Assembly (NCBI GenBank): GCA_965219915.1
Contig: OZ244794.1
Location: 1,052,790-1,116,789 of the forward strand
Reading direction: 5' to 3'
DNA length: 64,000 bases
Origin: Rhodothermales bacterium
GTDB lineage: Bacteria > Bacteroidota > Rhodothermia > Rhodothermales > Bin80
Each line of letters starts with the position of its first letter. Positions within the stretch are counted from its first letter, which is position 1. A program made the position numbers and the translations under genes. The notes under the pieces were generated by a model that did no database searches, was not told the DNA's origin, and worked only from the letters and a program-made list of their open reading frames with translations. Of the stretch, positions 33,989-39,728 are shown piece by piece.

Positions 33989-34735
33989 TCATTCGCACAC
34001 CCGTGCGGAAATCTGGGCACTAGTGGAAGAAGATTCAACGATGACGCACCCGTCAATGTCCAGAAAGCTCCGAATCTCTGGCTGCTTGTGGGCTACCAGC
34101 ATCACTGGCTTACTCTCAGGCGGCTCGAGACACTGCGTCAGCTCAGGAACAAACTGCCACATGGCTTCATCAAAGCCCCAGAACGTGATCCGCACATCTT
34201 CGCCCAGCCGCGACACGTATCCATGAAAGTCTCCTTCCGAATAATACCCTCCGATTGTCCGGATCATGGCGCTGGACAACGCCTTTTTAGGGTCCATATC
34301 GGTTTCTGCCTCTTCGCTAAGGAGGTCGGCATACTGGCGGGTGGTCACTAAGTTATAGTCTGTTTTCAAGCCTTGCGTGCGCAACGCCTCCGCCATCTCT
34401 CCCGACAGGTAGGCTCCTAGCTGAAACTGCTCTTCCGAAGGGTGGAGCACCATTACATCATTCGACCCAAATCCGTCGCGGGTAATGTCATAAAACAGTG
34501 CATGGGTGAACTCTGGATCTTCTGGTTGAATAAACTGCTCTTCCAGAAGTGACCGAATGAACGCCAAGTCAGTCAACTCAACCACCTGGACCACCCGTTG
34601 GGTCGCATATCCCTCTACCTGCGCAAACGCGGGCATCCCCGTACACAACATTAGGCTGCTGAGCCAAAGCCTCCGCAATGATAACCGATCAACGCCAGTA
34701 ATTATGGATCTACGAGTCTGAAGGAATGTAAACAT
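33989..34735 (-). CDS. Exported hypothetical protein
   Basis: Signal-peptide-like LWLSSLMLCTGMPAFAQ and a DITRDG Ca-loop-like motif. Tightly packed in the operon. Confidence 0.7.
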   Translation of the reverse strand: MFTFLQTRRSIITGVDRLSLRRLWLSSLMLCTGMPAFAQVEGYATQRVVQVVELTDLAFIRSLLEEQFIQPEDPEFTHALFYDITRDGFGSNDVMVLHPSEEQFQLGAYLSGEMAEALRTQGLKTDYNLVTTRQYADLLSEEAETDMDPKKALSSAMIRTIGGYYSEGDFHGYVSRLGEDVRITFWGFDEAMWQFVPELTQCLEPPESKPVMLVAHKQPEIRSFLDIDGCVIVESSSTSAQISARVCE

Positions 34736-37700: not shown

Positions 37701-39728
37701 ACGCACCCGTACATCATCACATTCAATCGACAGTTTTGGTCGTGGGAGGACGATAATCTCCACCAATGCGGGTTCAGAGGTGTCGTAAAACGGTGCCTCC
37801 GCCCGAACCTCATATTTGTAGGTCTCCGCGCCTTCCACAACCCCCGGGGTGCGAAAAATGGGGGAAGTCCCGGATGCGCCTTCAACCAGTCGGTCTTCGG
37901 GACCCTCCTGGAGTTGCCATGTCCAAGAAAGATCAGGCACATCGGCGCCCGAAATGGCACACTCCAAAGAGAAATCCGGCTCCCCCGCATACACCTCAAT
38001 TGGGCTCGTACACTGCACCGCGAGCTTGCCCAGATATTTCTCCACCGTCACGGTCAGCGTCGCCGGATTCTGCGGTGGATCAATATTATCCGCAGAGGCA
38101 GTGACCTGATACGTATATTCGACTGTTGGCGGAACCTGAGTCGCTGGAACATTGAACACTGGCATCGCGCTGGTTAGATCCCCGGACAACAGGTCCATAC
38201 CATCCACCGATGTCCAGCTCCACCGGTAGTCCGGAGTTCCGTAATGGAGTGGGACTTCAAGGGACGGGGTGCATTTGAGTTCCAGCGGTGAATTGCCCGT
38301 GCGCACCTGTACATCATCACATTCAATCGAAATGTCTGGACGCTCCAAGATCGTGATACTGATATCTTCCCTGTCTGTGAACTCTTCTCCAACATCTACA
38401 TTTTCGACCACCAGTACTCCATACTGCCACATTATATTCCCGTCCACCTCTTGAGGCAGAGCAACGATAAATTTAAACTCGGTCAACTGAGGATTTTGGA
38501 AAATATCGAGAATTTGACTCAGTGGATCTATTGGTGTATCTCCCCCATCCGCCGACAATGACCAGACCAGAGGGCCACTTGGAACACTCGTCAAACCGCA
38601 GGAAATCGTCAGTTCAGCGGGGCCAACTCCTTCGTACTCCACATACGGCAGCGGATAGGAATCCACATTACATGTTACATCTAGATCCAAAGGCGTCTGA
38701 GCATTCTGGACCGTAACCCTAAACTCATCTTCCACCACCGAACCGCCTTCCGATCCAAACACGCGAACGATCACCGAGAACGATGTATCCCGGTGAACCT
38801 CAGGAATCGCAATCATGGGCCAGTGGTCGTGGATGCCCCCCGGGGCGAGTTCAGAGAGGAGCTGAATTCGTGCTGATTTCCTTGGTGTAACCGAGCACGG
38901 AATGGCAGCCTGCATTCCCTCATTCACCATAATATCCTCACAATGGAGTCTCGGCGAACGGTTCACAACGTGGACCTCTACCCGCTCGGAAACTTCCTGC
39001 CCGTTGCCAGGAACTTGGGCAAACACTTCAAGCATCTGAACCGATGCTGCCCCCTGAATCACCGGTGCGCGAACCAAGTACGTAAATGTCCCCTCACCAA
39101 GAATCCTGGTCTCGTTGTACGGGGGCCAGTCAAACTCAAACCGGTACACTAAGAGTTCTCCCGATGGATGCAACCCGGTACACGGAATCTCAACTAGTTC
39201 GCCACTGTCCACCGTGATCCGGGATTCGCAGCGCATAAATGGGACTTGGTCAGGTACCGTACCATCCGCACCAACCAACTCCTCCATACTCTCTGCTTTG
39301 ACCTCCTCTGGCCACAGTCCATCAAGGTCAGTCCACTCCAACTCTCCCCGTCTCTTATCCATCAGCCCTCCAGATTCCGAGTACCGGTCTTCTTGTACGG
39401 TAATCATGACAGTCGCCTGATGCATGAGCTCCCCCTCACTGTCAAAGATCAGCCGGTCGTATACCAGTTGCAAAGGTGCCTCCACATTCAAAGGCGCATG
39501 GAAACGGGGAGAAGCAACTCCCACATCACTCAAATAGGTTAGCCAAGACGGATCCCGGCTAGTCCACTCATACGTATATCCTACCGCCTGTGCCCAGCAG
39601 TCTATCACCATGGAGCCCCCCGGAGCCACCTGCAGGTCTGAATGACAGGTCTCCGGACTGTTCTGCGCAACCGCAACCACCGTCAGAAACATCCCCAATA
39701 GAATGCCGAAGGCAGGTTTTGTTCGCAT
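34710..39728 (-). CDS. Large secreted fusion: Ig-like repeats + DUF4402-like pilin domain + PapD-like chaperone domain
   Basis: Signal peptide and ~100-aa Cys-paired beta modules. VSSSELNFG...LRIGGSI...PGAYSGKVSV matches 63602-64000. FELTNPS...GDLSALLTVHPKIVLLSPGETRTVHY matches the chaperone at 62833-63597. Confidence 0.8.
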   Translation of the reverse strand: MRTKPAFGILLGMFLTVVAVAQNSPETCHSDLQVAPGGSMVIDCWAQAVGYTYEWTSRDPSWLTYLSDVGVASPRFHAPLNVEAPLQLVYDRLIFDSEGELMHQATVMITVQEDRYSESGGLMDKRRGELEWTDLDGLWPEEVKAESMEELVGADGTVPDQVPFMRCESRITVDSGELVEIPCTGLHPSGELLVYRFEFDWPPYNETRILGEGTFTYLVRAPVIQGAASVQMLEVFAQVPGNGQEVSERVEVHVVNRSPRLHCEDIMVNEGMQAAIPCSVTPRKSARIQLLSELAPGGIHDHWPMIAIPEVHRDTSFSVIVRVFGSEGGSVVEDEFRVTVQNAQTPLDLDVTCNVDSYPLPYVEYEGVGPAELTISCGLTSVPSGPLVWSLSADGGDTPIDPLSQILDIFQNPQLTEFKFIVALPQEVDGNIMWQYGVLVVENVDVGEEFTDREDISITILERPDISIECDDVQVRTGNSPLELKCTPSLEVPLHYGTPDYRWSWTSVDGMDLLSGDLTSAMPVFNVPATQVPPTVEYTYQVTASADNIDPPQNPATLTVTVEKYLGKLAVQCTSPIEVYAGEPDFSLECAISGADVPDLSWTWQLQEGPEDRLVEGASGTSPIFRTPGVVEGAETYKYEVRAEAPFYDTSEPALVEIIVLPRPKLSIECDDVRVRTGDPPLELKCTPSLDIPPQYGTPDYLWSWTSENGMDLLSGDLTSATPVFNIPASQDPATAEYTYQVTASADNIDPPQNPATLTVTVEKYLGKLAVQCTSPIEVYAGEPDFSLECALSGADVPDLSWTWQLQEGPEDRLVEGASGASPIFRTPGVVEGAETYKYEVRAEAPFYDTSEPALVEIIVLPRPKLSIECDDVRVRTGDPPLELKCTPSLDIPPRDGTPDYLWSWTSENGMDLLSGDLTSATPVFNIPASQDPATAEYTYQVTASADNIDPPQNPATLTVTVEKYLGKLAVQCASPIEVYAGEPDFSLECALSGADVPDLSWTWQLQEGPEDRLVEGASGASPIFRTPGVVEGAETYKYEIRAEAPFYDASEPALVQIIVLQRPQLSIECDDVLVRTGDPPLELMCTPSLDVPLRDGTPDYLWSWSSENGMDLLSGDLTSAMPVFNVAADQDPPTVEYTYQVTASADNIDAPQSPATLTVTVEKYPILLECPEEVVVTVGMPPHRISCLVASDQDAALEYKWEWTPTERLSGTSTGSPLFDVPPLQRVYSRTYPYTVMVSAERGISSQASVSVIVLRPSQGLVEQVEVSSSELNFGVAGPDGEVLMDPAAELLSGLVYEAEQSHAGRMMIQARDSVTLSMEQVQSAVLRHMDSGRELTLVPRIAYSPSCTTFSAYTQASRIVQTLLAPGDCHVLRIGGSITLAQADPGAYSGKVSVVITVNGVDQLHTVPVELTVEPQRRVVLLGPDGVRFHVAPATGAPLEWEQHISIQPQVAVLDPQTRVGTFELTNPSIHPMEVEVSTEFGYRETRGEERFSVGVTDQEIAQGDLSALLTVHPKIVLLSPGETRTVHYAIPDHVQMQARGYAGQFNFAVTPREFIDQHQSPTSVQAARITFRAPGVYIPGPARLTASVESSTSEAVVLLVETDTTPFHGEIIVYDDSGDELGRSEVLVYTRSRVQVPLDAAPAGGLMLRFMSSTLNQLSPSDVYIPSDS
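36235..38330 (-). repeat. About 3.5 near-identical 600-bp intragenic tandem repeats
   Basis: ACATCATCACATTCAATCGA recurs at 36511, 37111, 37711 and 38311. Confidence 0.95.

Follow-up and report, generated by a model that had tools for sequence, protein, structure and literature searches.

A putative giant adhesin of a Rhodothermales bacterium carrying a pilin-like domain and a chaperone-like domain in one open reading frame

Organization of the fusion gene and its operon

The window (the whole 64,000-nt stretch of Rhodothermales DNA that was analyzed) contains P0001, a single open reading frame without internal stops according to the ORF list. As shown in Table 1, its predicted product is composed of a signal peptide, Ig/PKD-like repeats, a pilin-like domain, an extra β-strand, a linker and a chaperone-like domain, in this order. 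The N-terminal part, in which Cys pairs are abundant, is conserved among close homologues and matched no Pfam family. Each of the tandem units that follow consists of two Ig/PKD-like domains; the corresponding DNA is present in four copies with 600-nt spacing that are 88–90% alike, and the repeats gave Pfam matches to K319L-like PKD (E 5.2e-19) and I-set (E 3.8e-6).

Table 1. Features of the window discussed in the text (positions are those of the window).
Feature	Position	Strand	Basis or remark
P0001, adhesin-pilin-chaperone fusion, 1672 aa + stop codon	34710..39728	-	single open frame; homologues with same architecture
Signal peptide, residues about 1-21, MRTKPAFGILLGMFLTVVAVA	39666..39728	-	inferred from form of translation
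N-terminal non-repeated part, residues about 22-465	38334..39665	-	translation; consensus of homologue alignment
Four ~200-aa tandem units and one further PKD-like domain, residues about 466-1265	35934..38333	-	
Pilin-like (DUF4402-type) β-sandwich, residues 1266-1400	35529..35933	-	BLASTP, AlphaFold2, VIA-align
Extra β-strand VDQLHTVPVELTV, residues 1403-1415, after NG turn	35484..35522	-	DSSP on AlphaFold2 model
Conserved 29-residue linker, residues 1416-1444, EPQRRVVLLGPDGVRFHV...	35397..35483	-	alignment; AlphaFold2 pLDDT
Two-domain PapD-like chaperone fold, residues about 1445-1672	34713..35396	-	VIA-align, Foldseek, BLASTP
P0004, secreted protein, 248 aa, no family	33989..34735	-	BLASTP E 2e-16 to 244-aa protein of locus L004
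ExbD/TolR-like, 129 aa	33596..33985	-	Pfam ExbD E 4.5e-5, 24.0 bits, just under cut-off 25.4
TonB-like in layout only, 346 aa	32549..33589	-	N-terminal membrane anchor, acidic/Pro-rich stretch
ExbD/TolR-like, 119 aa	32197..32556	-	Pfam ExbD E 5.9e-8, 33.3 bits, above cut-off 25.4
TPR protein, 525 aa, lipoprotein-like N-terminus (LFGC)	30616..32193	-	weak TPR matches; conserved in operon
IS21-like element, broken istA pieces and intact IstB	27697..29948	+	Pfam IstB_IS21 E 7e-69, Mu-transpos_C_2 E 1.6e-12
ExbB/MotA/TolQ-like, 231 aa	26830..27525	+	Pfam MotA_ExbB E 8.6e-7, 29.2 bits, cut-off 22.9
Outer-membrane usher by fold, 820 aa	24347..26809	+	AlphaFold2 pLDDT 80.7; Foldseek; VIA-align
Part of unfused paralogous operon	60518..64000	-	comparison set
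Pilin P0003, runs off window	63602-64000	-	Pfam DUF4402 25.2 bits
Free chaperone P0002, 254 aa	62833-63597	-	BLASTP to P0001, E 5e-14
Usher-like protein, 769 aa	60518-62827	-	paralogue of 820-aa usher, E 2e-44

In relatives, the fusion gene belongs to a colinear operon (fusion, 248-aa protein, ExbD, TonB-like protein, ExbD, TPR protein, usher, ExbB), and all eight genes were found in this arrangement in loci L002, L040, L045 and L048. The usher and ExbB genes lie directly downstream of the fusion in four further loci, which makes 8 of 15 in total; six of the 15 fusions lack an usher within about 14 kb. A P0004-type gene follows the fusion in six of the 15 loci examined (the four colinear ones, L051 and the window's paralogue), and a paralogue of P0004 opens the free-type operons. 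Searches of Pfam, NCBIfam and Atlas with P0004 itself gave no lead.

ExbB and ExbD family proteins, as expected of a TonB-ExbB-ExbD system, are both encoded in the operon (MotA_ExbB, 29.2 bits; ExbD, 33.3 bits). The 346-aa protein, likewise conserved in the operon, matched nothing in Pfam, NCBIfam or Atlas, and no TonB C-terminal domain was detectable in it. Within the window's genome, ExbB adjoins the usher in three of the four usher loci, one of them unfused. The original prediction named neither the usher at 24347–26809 nor its linkage to the ExbB/ExbD/TonB-like genes; its statement that the locus lacks small pilins agrees with a Pfam search of the operon, in which no small DUF4402 pilin gene was found.

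In the window, the IS21-like element sits between the two halves of the operon, and the usher is inverted across this insertion relative to the colinear operon of relatives. The element is missing at the same place in L002. Since the usher and ExbB genes are inverted behind it, the window's copy of the fusion may be uncoupled from the operon promoter. An 896-aa neighbour carries a Por_Secre_tail domain, so the genome uses C-terminal sorting domains of another kind too.

The fused module and its unfused counterparts

The unfused operons have the gene order pilins, chaperone, usher, further pilins, and the genome contains two of them, with several pilins bearing N-terminal extensions. One pilin of the window gave a weak match to both Pfam SCPU and DUF4402, and the P0003 fragment scored exactly at the gathering cut-off of DUF4402; P0001 itself matched neither family at E 0.1. 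According to the original prediction, the regions ~35530–35930 and ~34710–35400 of the fusion gene resemble this pilin and the free chaperone, and the frame is open where the paralogous operon has a stop. BLASTP bore out the first resemblance (P0001 residues 1268–1399, nt about 35532–35927, 28% identity to P0003 over 138 columns, E 3e-4 in a single comparison) and also the second (residues 1499–1641, 29% identity to P0002, E 5e-14; P0002 was matched at E 5.2e-8 by phmmer across the whole library). The boundary of the latter had to be moved, since the chaperone-like part begins near residue 1442–1446 (nt about 35396) and a linker precedes it. The open frame was likewise confirmed: in the paralogous operon a stop at 63602 is followed by a restart at 63597, where the gene begins with its own signal peptide, and the P0001 frame continues through instead. 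The chaperone-like domain is thus no separate gene product preceded by a signal peptide: it follows the pilin-like domain in frame, and the linker takes the signal peptide's place.

Structure prediction of the last ~410 residues yielded a PapD-like fold, and not the adverse outcome of a C-terminal domain lacking it: the last ~230 residues are modelled by AlphaFold2 as two Ig-like domains in the PapD arrangement. In VIA-align, model residues 183–413 matched the whole chaperones YadV (Z 14.4, rmsd 5.6, 188 aligned), SfaE (14.1), Caf1M (14.1), FimC (13.6), PapD (13.3), CsuC (12.3–13.1) and CupB2 (within 12–14). These alignments cover both domains (177–198 residues), as they also do in a search independent of Foldseek, which itself gave TMt values of 0.49–0.57 for this part. 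At the sequence level, neither P0001 nor P0002 matched Pfam PapD_N or PapD_C; PapD_N matched two of 21 free chaperone homologues (best E 0.011, below any cut-off), and a profile of the free chaperone family found no chaperone among the PDB sequences. The 10 positions common to at least 90% of the free chaperones mostly carry the same residue in the fused set (shared positions: P32, G44, N50, E57, F88, P89, P96, G97, R103, P187 and the G190 region). In a quick tree, 28 fused and 21 free chaperone domains were separated by one branch (SH-aLRT 99).

The pilin-like domain (AlphaFold2 blocks with pLDDT 54–89) departs from a pilin subunit, which has an N-terminal donor strand and ends right after its last strand. 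The donor strand is absent, a PKD domain occupying the place of the N-terminal extension, and the chain runs on beyond the last pilin strand as NG-VDQLHTVPVELTV. All seven complete free pilins have the N-terminal extension, end 1–3 residues past the last strand and lack the extra strand. In structural alignments, true pilins (CooA, Z 8.6; CfaE-CfaB, Z 9.4) were no better as fold matches than unrelated generic sandwiches (Z up to 10.2).

The extra strand, announced by the original prediction, was recovered as DSSP strand 144–156, directly after strand 129–141 across the NG turn (pLDDT about 76–89). All 28 aligned fused proteins have it, with no indels, and structural alignments of the pilin-like sandwich extend to model residue 158–159. 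In the model, this strand appears to form a hairpin beside the last pilin strand within the β-sandwich, its partners being deduced from strand order. Of the two possibilities originally raised, a self-complemented adhesin is favoured over self-chaperoning by the chaperone's G1 strand, since the extra strand is modelled in the sandwich beside the last strand; the basis is one AlphaFold2 model (mean pLDDT 74.9, pTM 0.51). The model also argues against polymerization of the fused protein.

Among 45 long database homologues, 37 cover 94–100% of the 413-residue module (30–92% identity), with no stop between the domains, and the module lies at the C-terminal end in 24 of 77 cluster representatives. 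Of 401 genomes of the class, 36 have unbroken fused frames; 26 of these (among them G000) belong to the family of the window and the other 10 to a second family. The fusion is present as several paralogues per genome. Contigs from three runs of three studies, one of which may be the source, showed 0 differences over 34900–36100 and match the junction at 35400–35530 exactly. These sequence comparisons show that the fusion is real and old. Our literature searches found no description of such an adhesin-pilin-chaperone fusion, and we regard the fusion system as a new form of the chaperone-usher pathway.

The usher and the proposed mode of display

The usher assignment rests on fold. In the model of the 820-aa protein, six strands are followed by a small β domain (282–335), about 20 more strands and two C-terminal β domains (668–816), which corresponds to the barrel, the plug after the sixth strand and the two C-terminal domains of ushers. 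Foldseek ranks 1–17 were all FimD/PapC (E 8e-27 to 2e-15; next 2e-8), and VIA-align gave Z 18.5–23.7 with ushers, the best non-usher barrel reaching Z 17.3. The alignments with FimD begin only at model residue 166–185, so the usher N-terminal domain is left unmatched. The protein did not match Pfam Usher, and PF00577 gave 0 matches across the whole genome at E up to 10.

When the module was docked on the C-terminal domains of the usher, the ipSAE was 0.50 (best control 0.00); the runs shared at least 52% of their contacts, and partner pLDDT was 73 or higher. Exchanging the C-terminal chain of the usher brought the score down to 0.00. The mark applied is reached by 116 of 157 solved complexes and by two of 215 mismatches. 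The result points only weakly to an interaction, because the range up to 0.60 holds just 18 of the 157 true complexes together with both mismatches, and the score may reflect memory of FimD-FimC-FimH.

Our best reading, which as a whole we judge about evenly balanced between right and wrong, is that P0001, a giant adhesin exported by the Sec route, owes its last 413 residues to two neighbouring genes, one for a pilin and one for a chaperone, of a highly divergent chaperone-usher system with DUF4402/SCPU-type pilins. It would now be a self-complemented single polypeptide that passes through an usher of its own and uses the chaperone domain for targeting and as a stopper in the periplasm. The extra C-terminal strand is predicted to complete the pilin-like sandwich in cis, as an antiparallel hairpin in the position of the neighbour's donor strand in a finished pilus; neither a chaperone strand nor a next subunit would therefore be needed, and no polymerization would occur. 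The Ig-like repeats would fold and form disulfide bonds in the periplasm and then cross the usher domain by domain. The chaperone-like domain, presumably too bulky to follow them, could act both as an inbuilt address label for the C-terminal periplasmic domains of the usher and as the stopper that anchors the fibre, by analogy with FimI-FimC on FimD at the type 1 pilus base. We infer that P0001 is monomeric and tethered at the usher.

Since donor-strand exchange is unavailable to the fused system, energy or gating probably comes from the ExbB, ExbD and TonB-like proteins that the operon encodes. A further step, that a proton-driven ExbB-ExbD-TonB-like motor coupled to the usher-type pore exports, gates or pulls the giant adhesin with its covalent chaperone as address and anchor, is a tentative proposal that may well be wrong; if true, it would represent a new mode of outer-membrane display and an energized branch of the usher pathway.

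The linker (motif RV..(I/L)GP.G(V/A)(R/H)F) is kept in length and motif in 26 of 28 fused sequences, with a 2-residue gap in the other two, and is modelled with pLDDT <50 over residues 159–186. Conservation of a segment disordered in the model is what a processing or recognition site would be expected to show, and the genome's other C-terminal sorting domains (Por_Secre_tail of the 896-aa neighbour) would also suit a cleavable targeting module, cut at the linker after delivery to the usher, with the adhesin released or held otherwise. We consider this rather unlikely, since the operon contains no protease gene and the self-complemented pilin domain, once cut, would lack any anchor. Cleavage and retention are equally compatible with the docking score, which therefore does not discriminate between them. 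The linker, unplaced in the model, may have a role that the best reading ignores.

A conserved G1-like strand (ARITF.APGVYIP), preceded by a long disordered loop, is retained in the fused chaperone domain; this speaks against self-complementation and would also be compatible with the chaperone complementing the pilin-like domain in cis. The G1 strand would then occupy the pilin groove and leave the domain open for a free pilin of another operon to displace it and build a fibre, the fusion acting as pilus primer or terminator. Retention of most near-invariant positions of free chaperones, and the two unfused operons with their extended pilins, are in line with this scheme; however, in the AlphaFold2 model it is the extra strand and not G1 that lies next to the last pilin strand, at good local confidence, fused-type operons contain no small pilin, and the adhesin repeats would be at the wrong end for a tip. 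Having no donor strand of its own, the fused domain could only be the last, not the first, subunit of a fibre. We regard the scheme as unlikely.

It is very unlikely that the module is a degenerate relic, now just a stable C-terminal Ig-like stalk of a protein that is periplasmic or exported by another route, its usher linkage being historical. The six fused genes without a nearby usher and the failure of Pfam to recognize the module domains could be explained in this way, but the module is kept down to 30% identity, with a junction free of stops and indels, across two families and among the several paralogues of a genome; its core chaperone positions are kept, and an intact usher and ExbB lie directly downstream in eight of the 15 loci. 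Finally, an assembly or annotation artefact, in which a sequencing error wrongly joined two or three genes, might be suspected because in unfused operons the chaperone gene directly neighbours the pilin gene and often shares its frame, with one stop between the two (12 rows with one TAG or TAA), but is refuted, as far as sequence data allow, by the identical junction in the contigs of three studies, the recurrence in 36 genomes and 37 database proteins and the linker standing where the free chaperone has a signal peptide.

Comparison with known systems

Chaperone-usher systems are the standard example of assembly at the outer membrane for which, apart from subunit folding, no energy source is held to be needed, and their chaperones are normally free periplasmic proteins that deliver incomplete subunits and are then recycled. 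A subunit, its completing strand and its chaperone on one natural, conserved chain would show that the pathway can be converted to display of a single giant adhesin. They would also raise the testable question of what drives export without donor-strand exchange, to which the conserved ExbB/ExbD/TonB-like genes beside the usher point as an answer. Whole chaperone-usher systems in Rhodothermales, some of them labelled as sponge metagenomes, escape current Pfam and NCBIfam models.

Like the archaic (sigma-type) chaperone-usher pili, such as Csu of Acinetobacter baumannii and CupE of Pseudomonas aeruginosa (PMC4654587, PMC9452303 and PMC10104325), the systems of the window have small pilins of the SCPU/DUF4402 kind, a two-domain PapD-like chaperone (cf. 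the CsuC match) and an outer-membrane usher, with the unfused operons ordered as given above. Unlike in those pili, pilin and chaperone are here joined in a single chain that forms the tail of a giant repeat protein, ExbB/ExbD/TonB-like genes lie inside the fusion operon, and no Pfam/NCBIfam match to PapD_N, PapD_C or Usher was obtained. The usher N-terminal domain also did not align with that of FimD.

The TonB-ExbB-ExbD, Tol-Pal and GldLM/PorLM motors resemble the fusion operon, which combines genes for ExbB and ExbD family proteins with one for an outer-membrane barrel, and, as in TonB systems, a membrane-anchored protein with a Pro/acid-rich stretch stands in TonB's place. This barrel, however, is an usher and not a TonB-dependent transporter, and no C-terminal domain of the TonB kind is detectable in the TonB-like protein.

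In the terminated type 1 pilus, FimI stays capped by FimC on FimD and anchors the fibre at the usher, as described in PMC12122975. Chains 9fx8_C and 9fx8_D of the FimI-FimC-FimD entry are among the best structural matches of the module and usher models. FimI is held by a separate protein through specific contacts, whereas here the link would be covalent and the fibre would be the same polypeptide.

Engineered donor-strand-complemented (dsc) pilins (SafDAA-dsc, CfaE-CfaB fusions, CooA) share with the module a donor-like strand after the last pilin strand and self-completion. Constructs of this type were among the model matches, namely 5y9h and 3f83–3f85 in Foldseek and, in VIA-align with model residues 5–158, 3f83 (Z 9.4) and 4hji (Z 8.6), which we take to be a dsc construct. 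Those pilins are laboratory constructs with designed linkers, whereas the connection here is natural, with a predicted turn of two residues (NG). The fusion would be a natural counterpart not only of the self-complemented pilins made by engineering but also of the pilus base that stays capped by a chaperone once the pilus is finished.

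Layout and predicted fold of the fusion protein

The giant gene encodes P0001, in which Pfam searches identified no domains other than those of the PKD/Ig type (K319L-like PKD, E 5.2e-19; I-set, E 3.8e-6). Its 600-nt units were recovered as four copies by a general repeat search, while Tandem Repeats Finder returned none because their period lies above its limit. The number of these units varies among close relatives (homologs of 1472 aa with 92% identity in the tail, and of 1274 aa with 87%), and the length of the stalk appears to vary between strains.

Features of the fusion locus and of related operons (window positions unless prefixed G000:C1, the contig of the window's own genome)
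Feature	Position	Strand	Description
Usher gene	24347-26809	+	820 aa; paralog of the 769-aa protein encoded after the free chaperone (E 2e-44)
Usher-ExbB pair	within 24347-27525	+	inverted compared with relatives, whose operon is colinear
IS21-like element	27697-29948	+	istA in pieces, IstB intact; between TPR gene and ExbB
First six operon genes	39728 down to 30616	-	fusion gene to TPR gene
346-aa protein gene	32549-33589	-	TonB-like in layout only
P0004 gene	33989-34735	-	248-aa secreted protein; with the first ATG taken as its start, it shares 26 nt with the end of the giant gene
Fusion gene (P0001)	34710-39728	-	single open frame, 1672 codons
P0001, N-terminal start			signal-peptide-like stretch
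P0001, following part			~440 residues, non-repeated, Cys-rich
P0001, repeats	36233-38332	-	four tandem units of ~200 residues; four DNA copies, 600-nt spacing, 88-90% alike
P0001, linker	35397-35483	-	residues 1416-1444
Mobile elements	41134-45070	+	upstream of the giant gene; two group II intron reverse transcriptase/maturase fragments (RVT_1 + GIIM), IS110-family transposase
Unfused operon	55575-64000 and beyond	-	locus L004
Free chaperone (P0002)	62833-63597	-	254 aa
Pilin fragment (P0003)	63602-64000	-	DUF4402 protein
Third operon, unfused	G000:C1:1364217-1371457		loci L007, L003
Second fused-type operon	G000:C1:1420000-1429200		locus L045, complete; fusion frame of 1136 codons
Second fused copy	G000:C1:1420286-1421494		51% identical to the P0001 tail

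The original prediction held that the end of P0001 matches the neighboring pilin and the free chaperone, and that the frame stays open where the paralogous operon stops and restarts; all three points were borne out. In BLASTP-type alignments, residues 1268-1399 matched P0003 (E 3e-4), itself a DUF4402 protein at 25.2 bits, exactly the Pfam cut-off, and residues 1499-1641 matched P0002 (E 5e-14). The 1672 codons are unbroken. In the paralogous operon, by contrast, the pilin gene terminates at 63602, and the gene that follows, which has a signal peptide of its own, begins at 63597.

The last 413 residues (the tail; model residues 1-413) were folded with AlphaFold2 using 23 aligned homologs, in one model with a mean pLDDT of 74.9 and a pTM of 0.51. 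Model residues 183-413 (P0001 1442-1672) aligned with whole chaperones from pili of the classical, alternative and archaic types, in agreement with the PapD-like fold expected of this part: over 167-198 aligned residues the VIA Z-scores were 14.4 for YadV, 14.1 for SfaE and for Caf1M, 13.6 for FimC, 13.3 for PapD, 13.1 for CsuC and 12.9 for EcpB. A structural search independent of Foldseek placed the same chaperone families on top. At the sequence level, nothing in Pfam or NCBIfam revealed this relationship; PapD_N was touched by only 2 of the 21 free homologs (best E 0.011), and NCBIfam gave no match for 10 proteins of the two loci. Searched against PDB sequences, a profile of the free-chaperone family hit a chain of a plant lectin-toxin (60 residues, E 7e-4) and type IV pilins (E > 0.07), which were rejected as unrelated chance matches. 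The Arg residue invariant among free chaperones (R103 of P0002) is kept in 75% of the fused proteins and is His in P0001.

The pilin-like part was modeled as a beta-sandwich (pLDDT 54-89). Its last pilin strand (model 129-141, GAYSGKVSVVITV) is followed, after an NG turn, by the predicted extra strand (model 144-156, VDQLHTVPVELTV; pLDDT ~76-89). Since structural alignments of the sandwich extend to residue 158-159, this strand forms part of the domain. The hairpin position suggests that it may occupy the groove that the first and last strands border. The sandwich matched those of unrelated GH123 enzymes (Z 8.8-10.2), a CfaE-CfaB fusion (9.4) and the CooA pilin (8.6, over model range 5-158); the pilins thus match no better than unrelated sandwiches, and the pilin identity of the domain rests on sequence.

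Among 28 fused proteins, the extra strand plus the 29-residue linker that follows have a constant length in 26 and a two-residue gap in the other two. The linker carries a conserved motif, RV..(I/L)GP.G(V/A)(R/H)F, common to two families, yet it was modeled as disordered. Possible roles are as a site of cleavage, as a strand bound in the cleft of the chaperone or as a contact point for the TonB-like protein. In all seven free pilins examined, the chain ends 1-3 residues past the last strand and begins with an extension in which hydrophobic residues alternate; in the fused proteins a PKD domain takes the place of this extension. When the 28 extra strands were turned into a position score, which captures a generic strand pattern only, its best window fell in the N-terminal extension of three of the seven free pilins, in the last strand of three and elsewhere in one.

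Distribution of the fusion and its operons

A search of long proteins with the tail gave 45 matches, of which 37 (1112-2918 residues) cover 94-100% of it at 30-92% identity; the few named ones are "hypothetical proteins" of Rhodothermaceae or Bacteroidetes MAGs. An exhaustive phmmer search of 1.84 billion cluster representatives gave 77 matches, with the whole module at the C-terminal end in 24, and a separate set of ~250-290-residue proteins matching only in the chaperone-like part. A scan of 401 genomes of the class located the module in 36, in frames of 500-3319 codons without a break, and several genomes carry multiple fused paralogs. Of the 36, 26 belong to the window's own family (its own genome included) and 10 to a second family of the same order; the fused form was found in none of the other families searched. 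The fusion therefore recurs in other genomes, as the original prediction proposed to check. In a quick maximum-likelihood tree of the chaperone domains, one branch (SH-aLRT 99) separates 28 fused from 21 free sequences, which fits a single fusion event. An arrangement with a single stop between pilin and chaperone genes occupies 12 rows of the class-wide scan and suggests a route by which the fusion could arise. In the third operon of the window's genome these two genes share a frame, with one TAG and one codon between them.

In a complete Rhodothermales MAG chromosome (locus L002), one strand encodes, in order, the fusion (1317 aa), a 238-aa protein, ExbD, a 360-aa protein, ExbD, a TPR protein (525 aa), an usher (818 aa) and ExbB (236 aa). 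In the window, the usher and ExbB genes lie on the opposite strand, beyond the IS21-like element; this element and the inversion indicate that the operon copy has been rearranged, with all frames intact. Within 15000-45000, neither another copy of the IS nor a long inverted repeat was found that would explain the inversion. The region around the giant gene contains many mobile elements.

Synteny was compared at 15 loci (L002 and 14 hand-picked from ~70 fused rows to span the identity range). All seven genes follow the fusion at four loci; at another four the usher and ExbB follow directly, once with the TPR gene; one locus has five of the seven; and six have no partner gene within ~14 kb. No small pilin gene was found in the fused-type operons examined, in line with the absence noted earlier at the fusion locus.

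The second fused-type operon of the window's genome has all seven partner genes, colinear and uninterrupted. This genome encodes four usher and four ExbB paralogs, and an ExbB gene lies beside three of the four ushers. The unfused operon in the window encodes a 244-aa P0004 paralog, three DUF4402 pilins, the chaperone, the 769-aa usher-like protein (its N-terminus matches Cu_amine_oxidN1), a 172-aa protein, a 162-aa DUF4402/SCPU pilin and a 397-aa protein, without ExbB; it is followed by a gene for an 896-aa BNR-repeat protein with a type IX secretion tail. The third operon contains pilin, chaperone and usher genes, and downstream of the usher it encodes a DUF4402 protein of 288 aa with two domains, ExbB, ExbD and one more product of ExbD size that has no Pfam match. 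Since this operon is unfused, the ExbB/ExbD link belongs to the usher clade and not to the fusion alone. A P0004-type secreted protein (~245 aa, no known family) accompanies every operon of the system in this genome, fused or not; in the unfused operons a gene for a P0004 paralog (E 2e-16) comes first. For the 346-aa and the 248-aa proteins, the ESM Atlas yielded nothing usable.

The predicted usher and proposed export of the adhesin

Neither the 820-aa nor the 769-aa protein matched the Pfam Usher family, and PF00577 found nothing in the whole genome at E-values up to 10. In the single AlphaFold2 model of the 820-aa protein (29 homologs, pLDDT 80.7), an N-terminal domain is followed by six long strands and a small beta domain (282-335), after which come about twenty further strands and two C-terminal beta domains; PapC and FimD have this same order. 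The first 17 Foldseek matches were all FimD/PapC (E 8e-27 to 2e-15; next class, 2e-8), and in VIA 15 usher entries had Z-scores of 18.5-23.7, while the highest value for any barrel of another kind was 17.3. The full-length alignments extend to the last residue, and in the VIA comparison the N-terminal domain did not align with that of FimD. Judged by its modeled fold, the partner is an usher.

We propose, at roughly even chances for the mechanism as a whole, that P0001 is a self-complemented adhesin exported through a dedicated usher, with the chaperone domain as both address and stopper. The extra strand would complete the pilin-like domain in cis; as it follows the last strand via a tight turn, it must run antiparallel to that strand. 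Antiparallel is the orientation of a neighbor's donor strand in the finished fiber and of the added strand in engineered "dsc" pilins. A domain completed in this way would be finished and would not polymerize. The repeats would thread through the usher one behind another as Ig-like domains that are already folded, and the chaperone-like domain, unable to follow, would bind the periplasmic C-terminal domains of the usher and anchor the protein. With no donor-strand exchange to pay for export, the conserved ExbB/ExbD/TonB-like genes are the obvious candidates for energy or gating, although a powering or gating role of their products is speculation.

The docking input comprised the N-terminal and the C-terminal domains of the usher together with the 413-residue module. 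The ipSAE was 0.50 (0.48-0.51 in three runs) compared to 0.00 in three controls. In calibration, 116 of 157 solved complexes attained this mark, as did 2 of 215 mismatches; at 0.60 or below it was attained by only 18 of these complexes and by both mismatches. The job differs from those of the calibration, and the predictor may have memorized solved FimD-FimC complexes. At least 52% of contacts agreed between runs, with partner pLDDT of at least 73, and the score fell to 0.00 when the usher C-terminal chain was replaced. These values hint that the module may bind the usher C-terminal domains.

Among the alternatives, cleavage of the chaperone-like domain at the linker is unlikely, though the best placed; the conserved motif and modeled disorder of the linker speak for it, and against it, a self-complemented pilin domain would have nothing to anchor it once cut free. 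Somewhat less likely is that the chaperone's own conserved G1-like strand complements the pilin-like domain in cis and is later exchanged against free pilins, for which the fused-type operons examined hold no gene. That the module is a relic with no role in export is less probable again; the loci without nearby partner genes speak for it, and the near-constant strand and linker against it. An artefactual fusion is excluded by the sequence data, since contigs of three runs from three studies (one possibly the window's source, one labeled a sponge metagenome) show no differences across 34900-36100, and the fusion recurs in other genomes; on this evidence it is real and old. A look for runs containing the stretch turned up no RNA data set.

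A FimI-FimC cap is reported to anchor the type 1 pilus on FimD (PMC12122975), and the anchor proposed for the chaperone domain of P0001 would be a parallel to it. In literature listings and abstracts, with most subscription journals outside this scope, no natural pilin-chaperone fusion, DUF4402 system or ExbB-linked usher was found described. Compared with the chaperone-usher pathway, all three core folds are predicted to be present in the fused system, while three of its habits, namely a separate chaperone, polymerizing subunits and energy independence, would on this reading have been changed.
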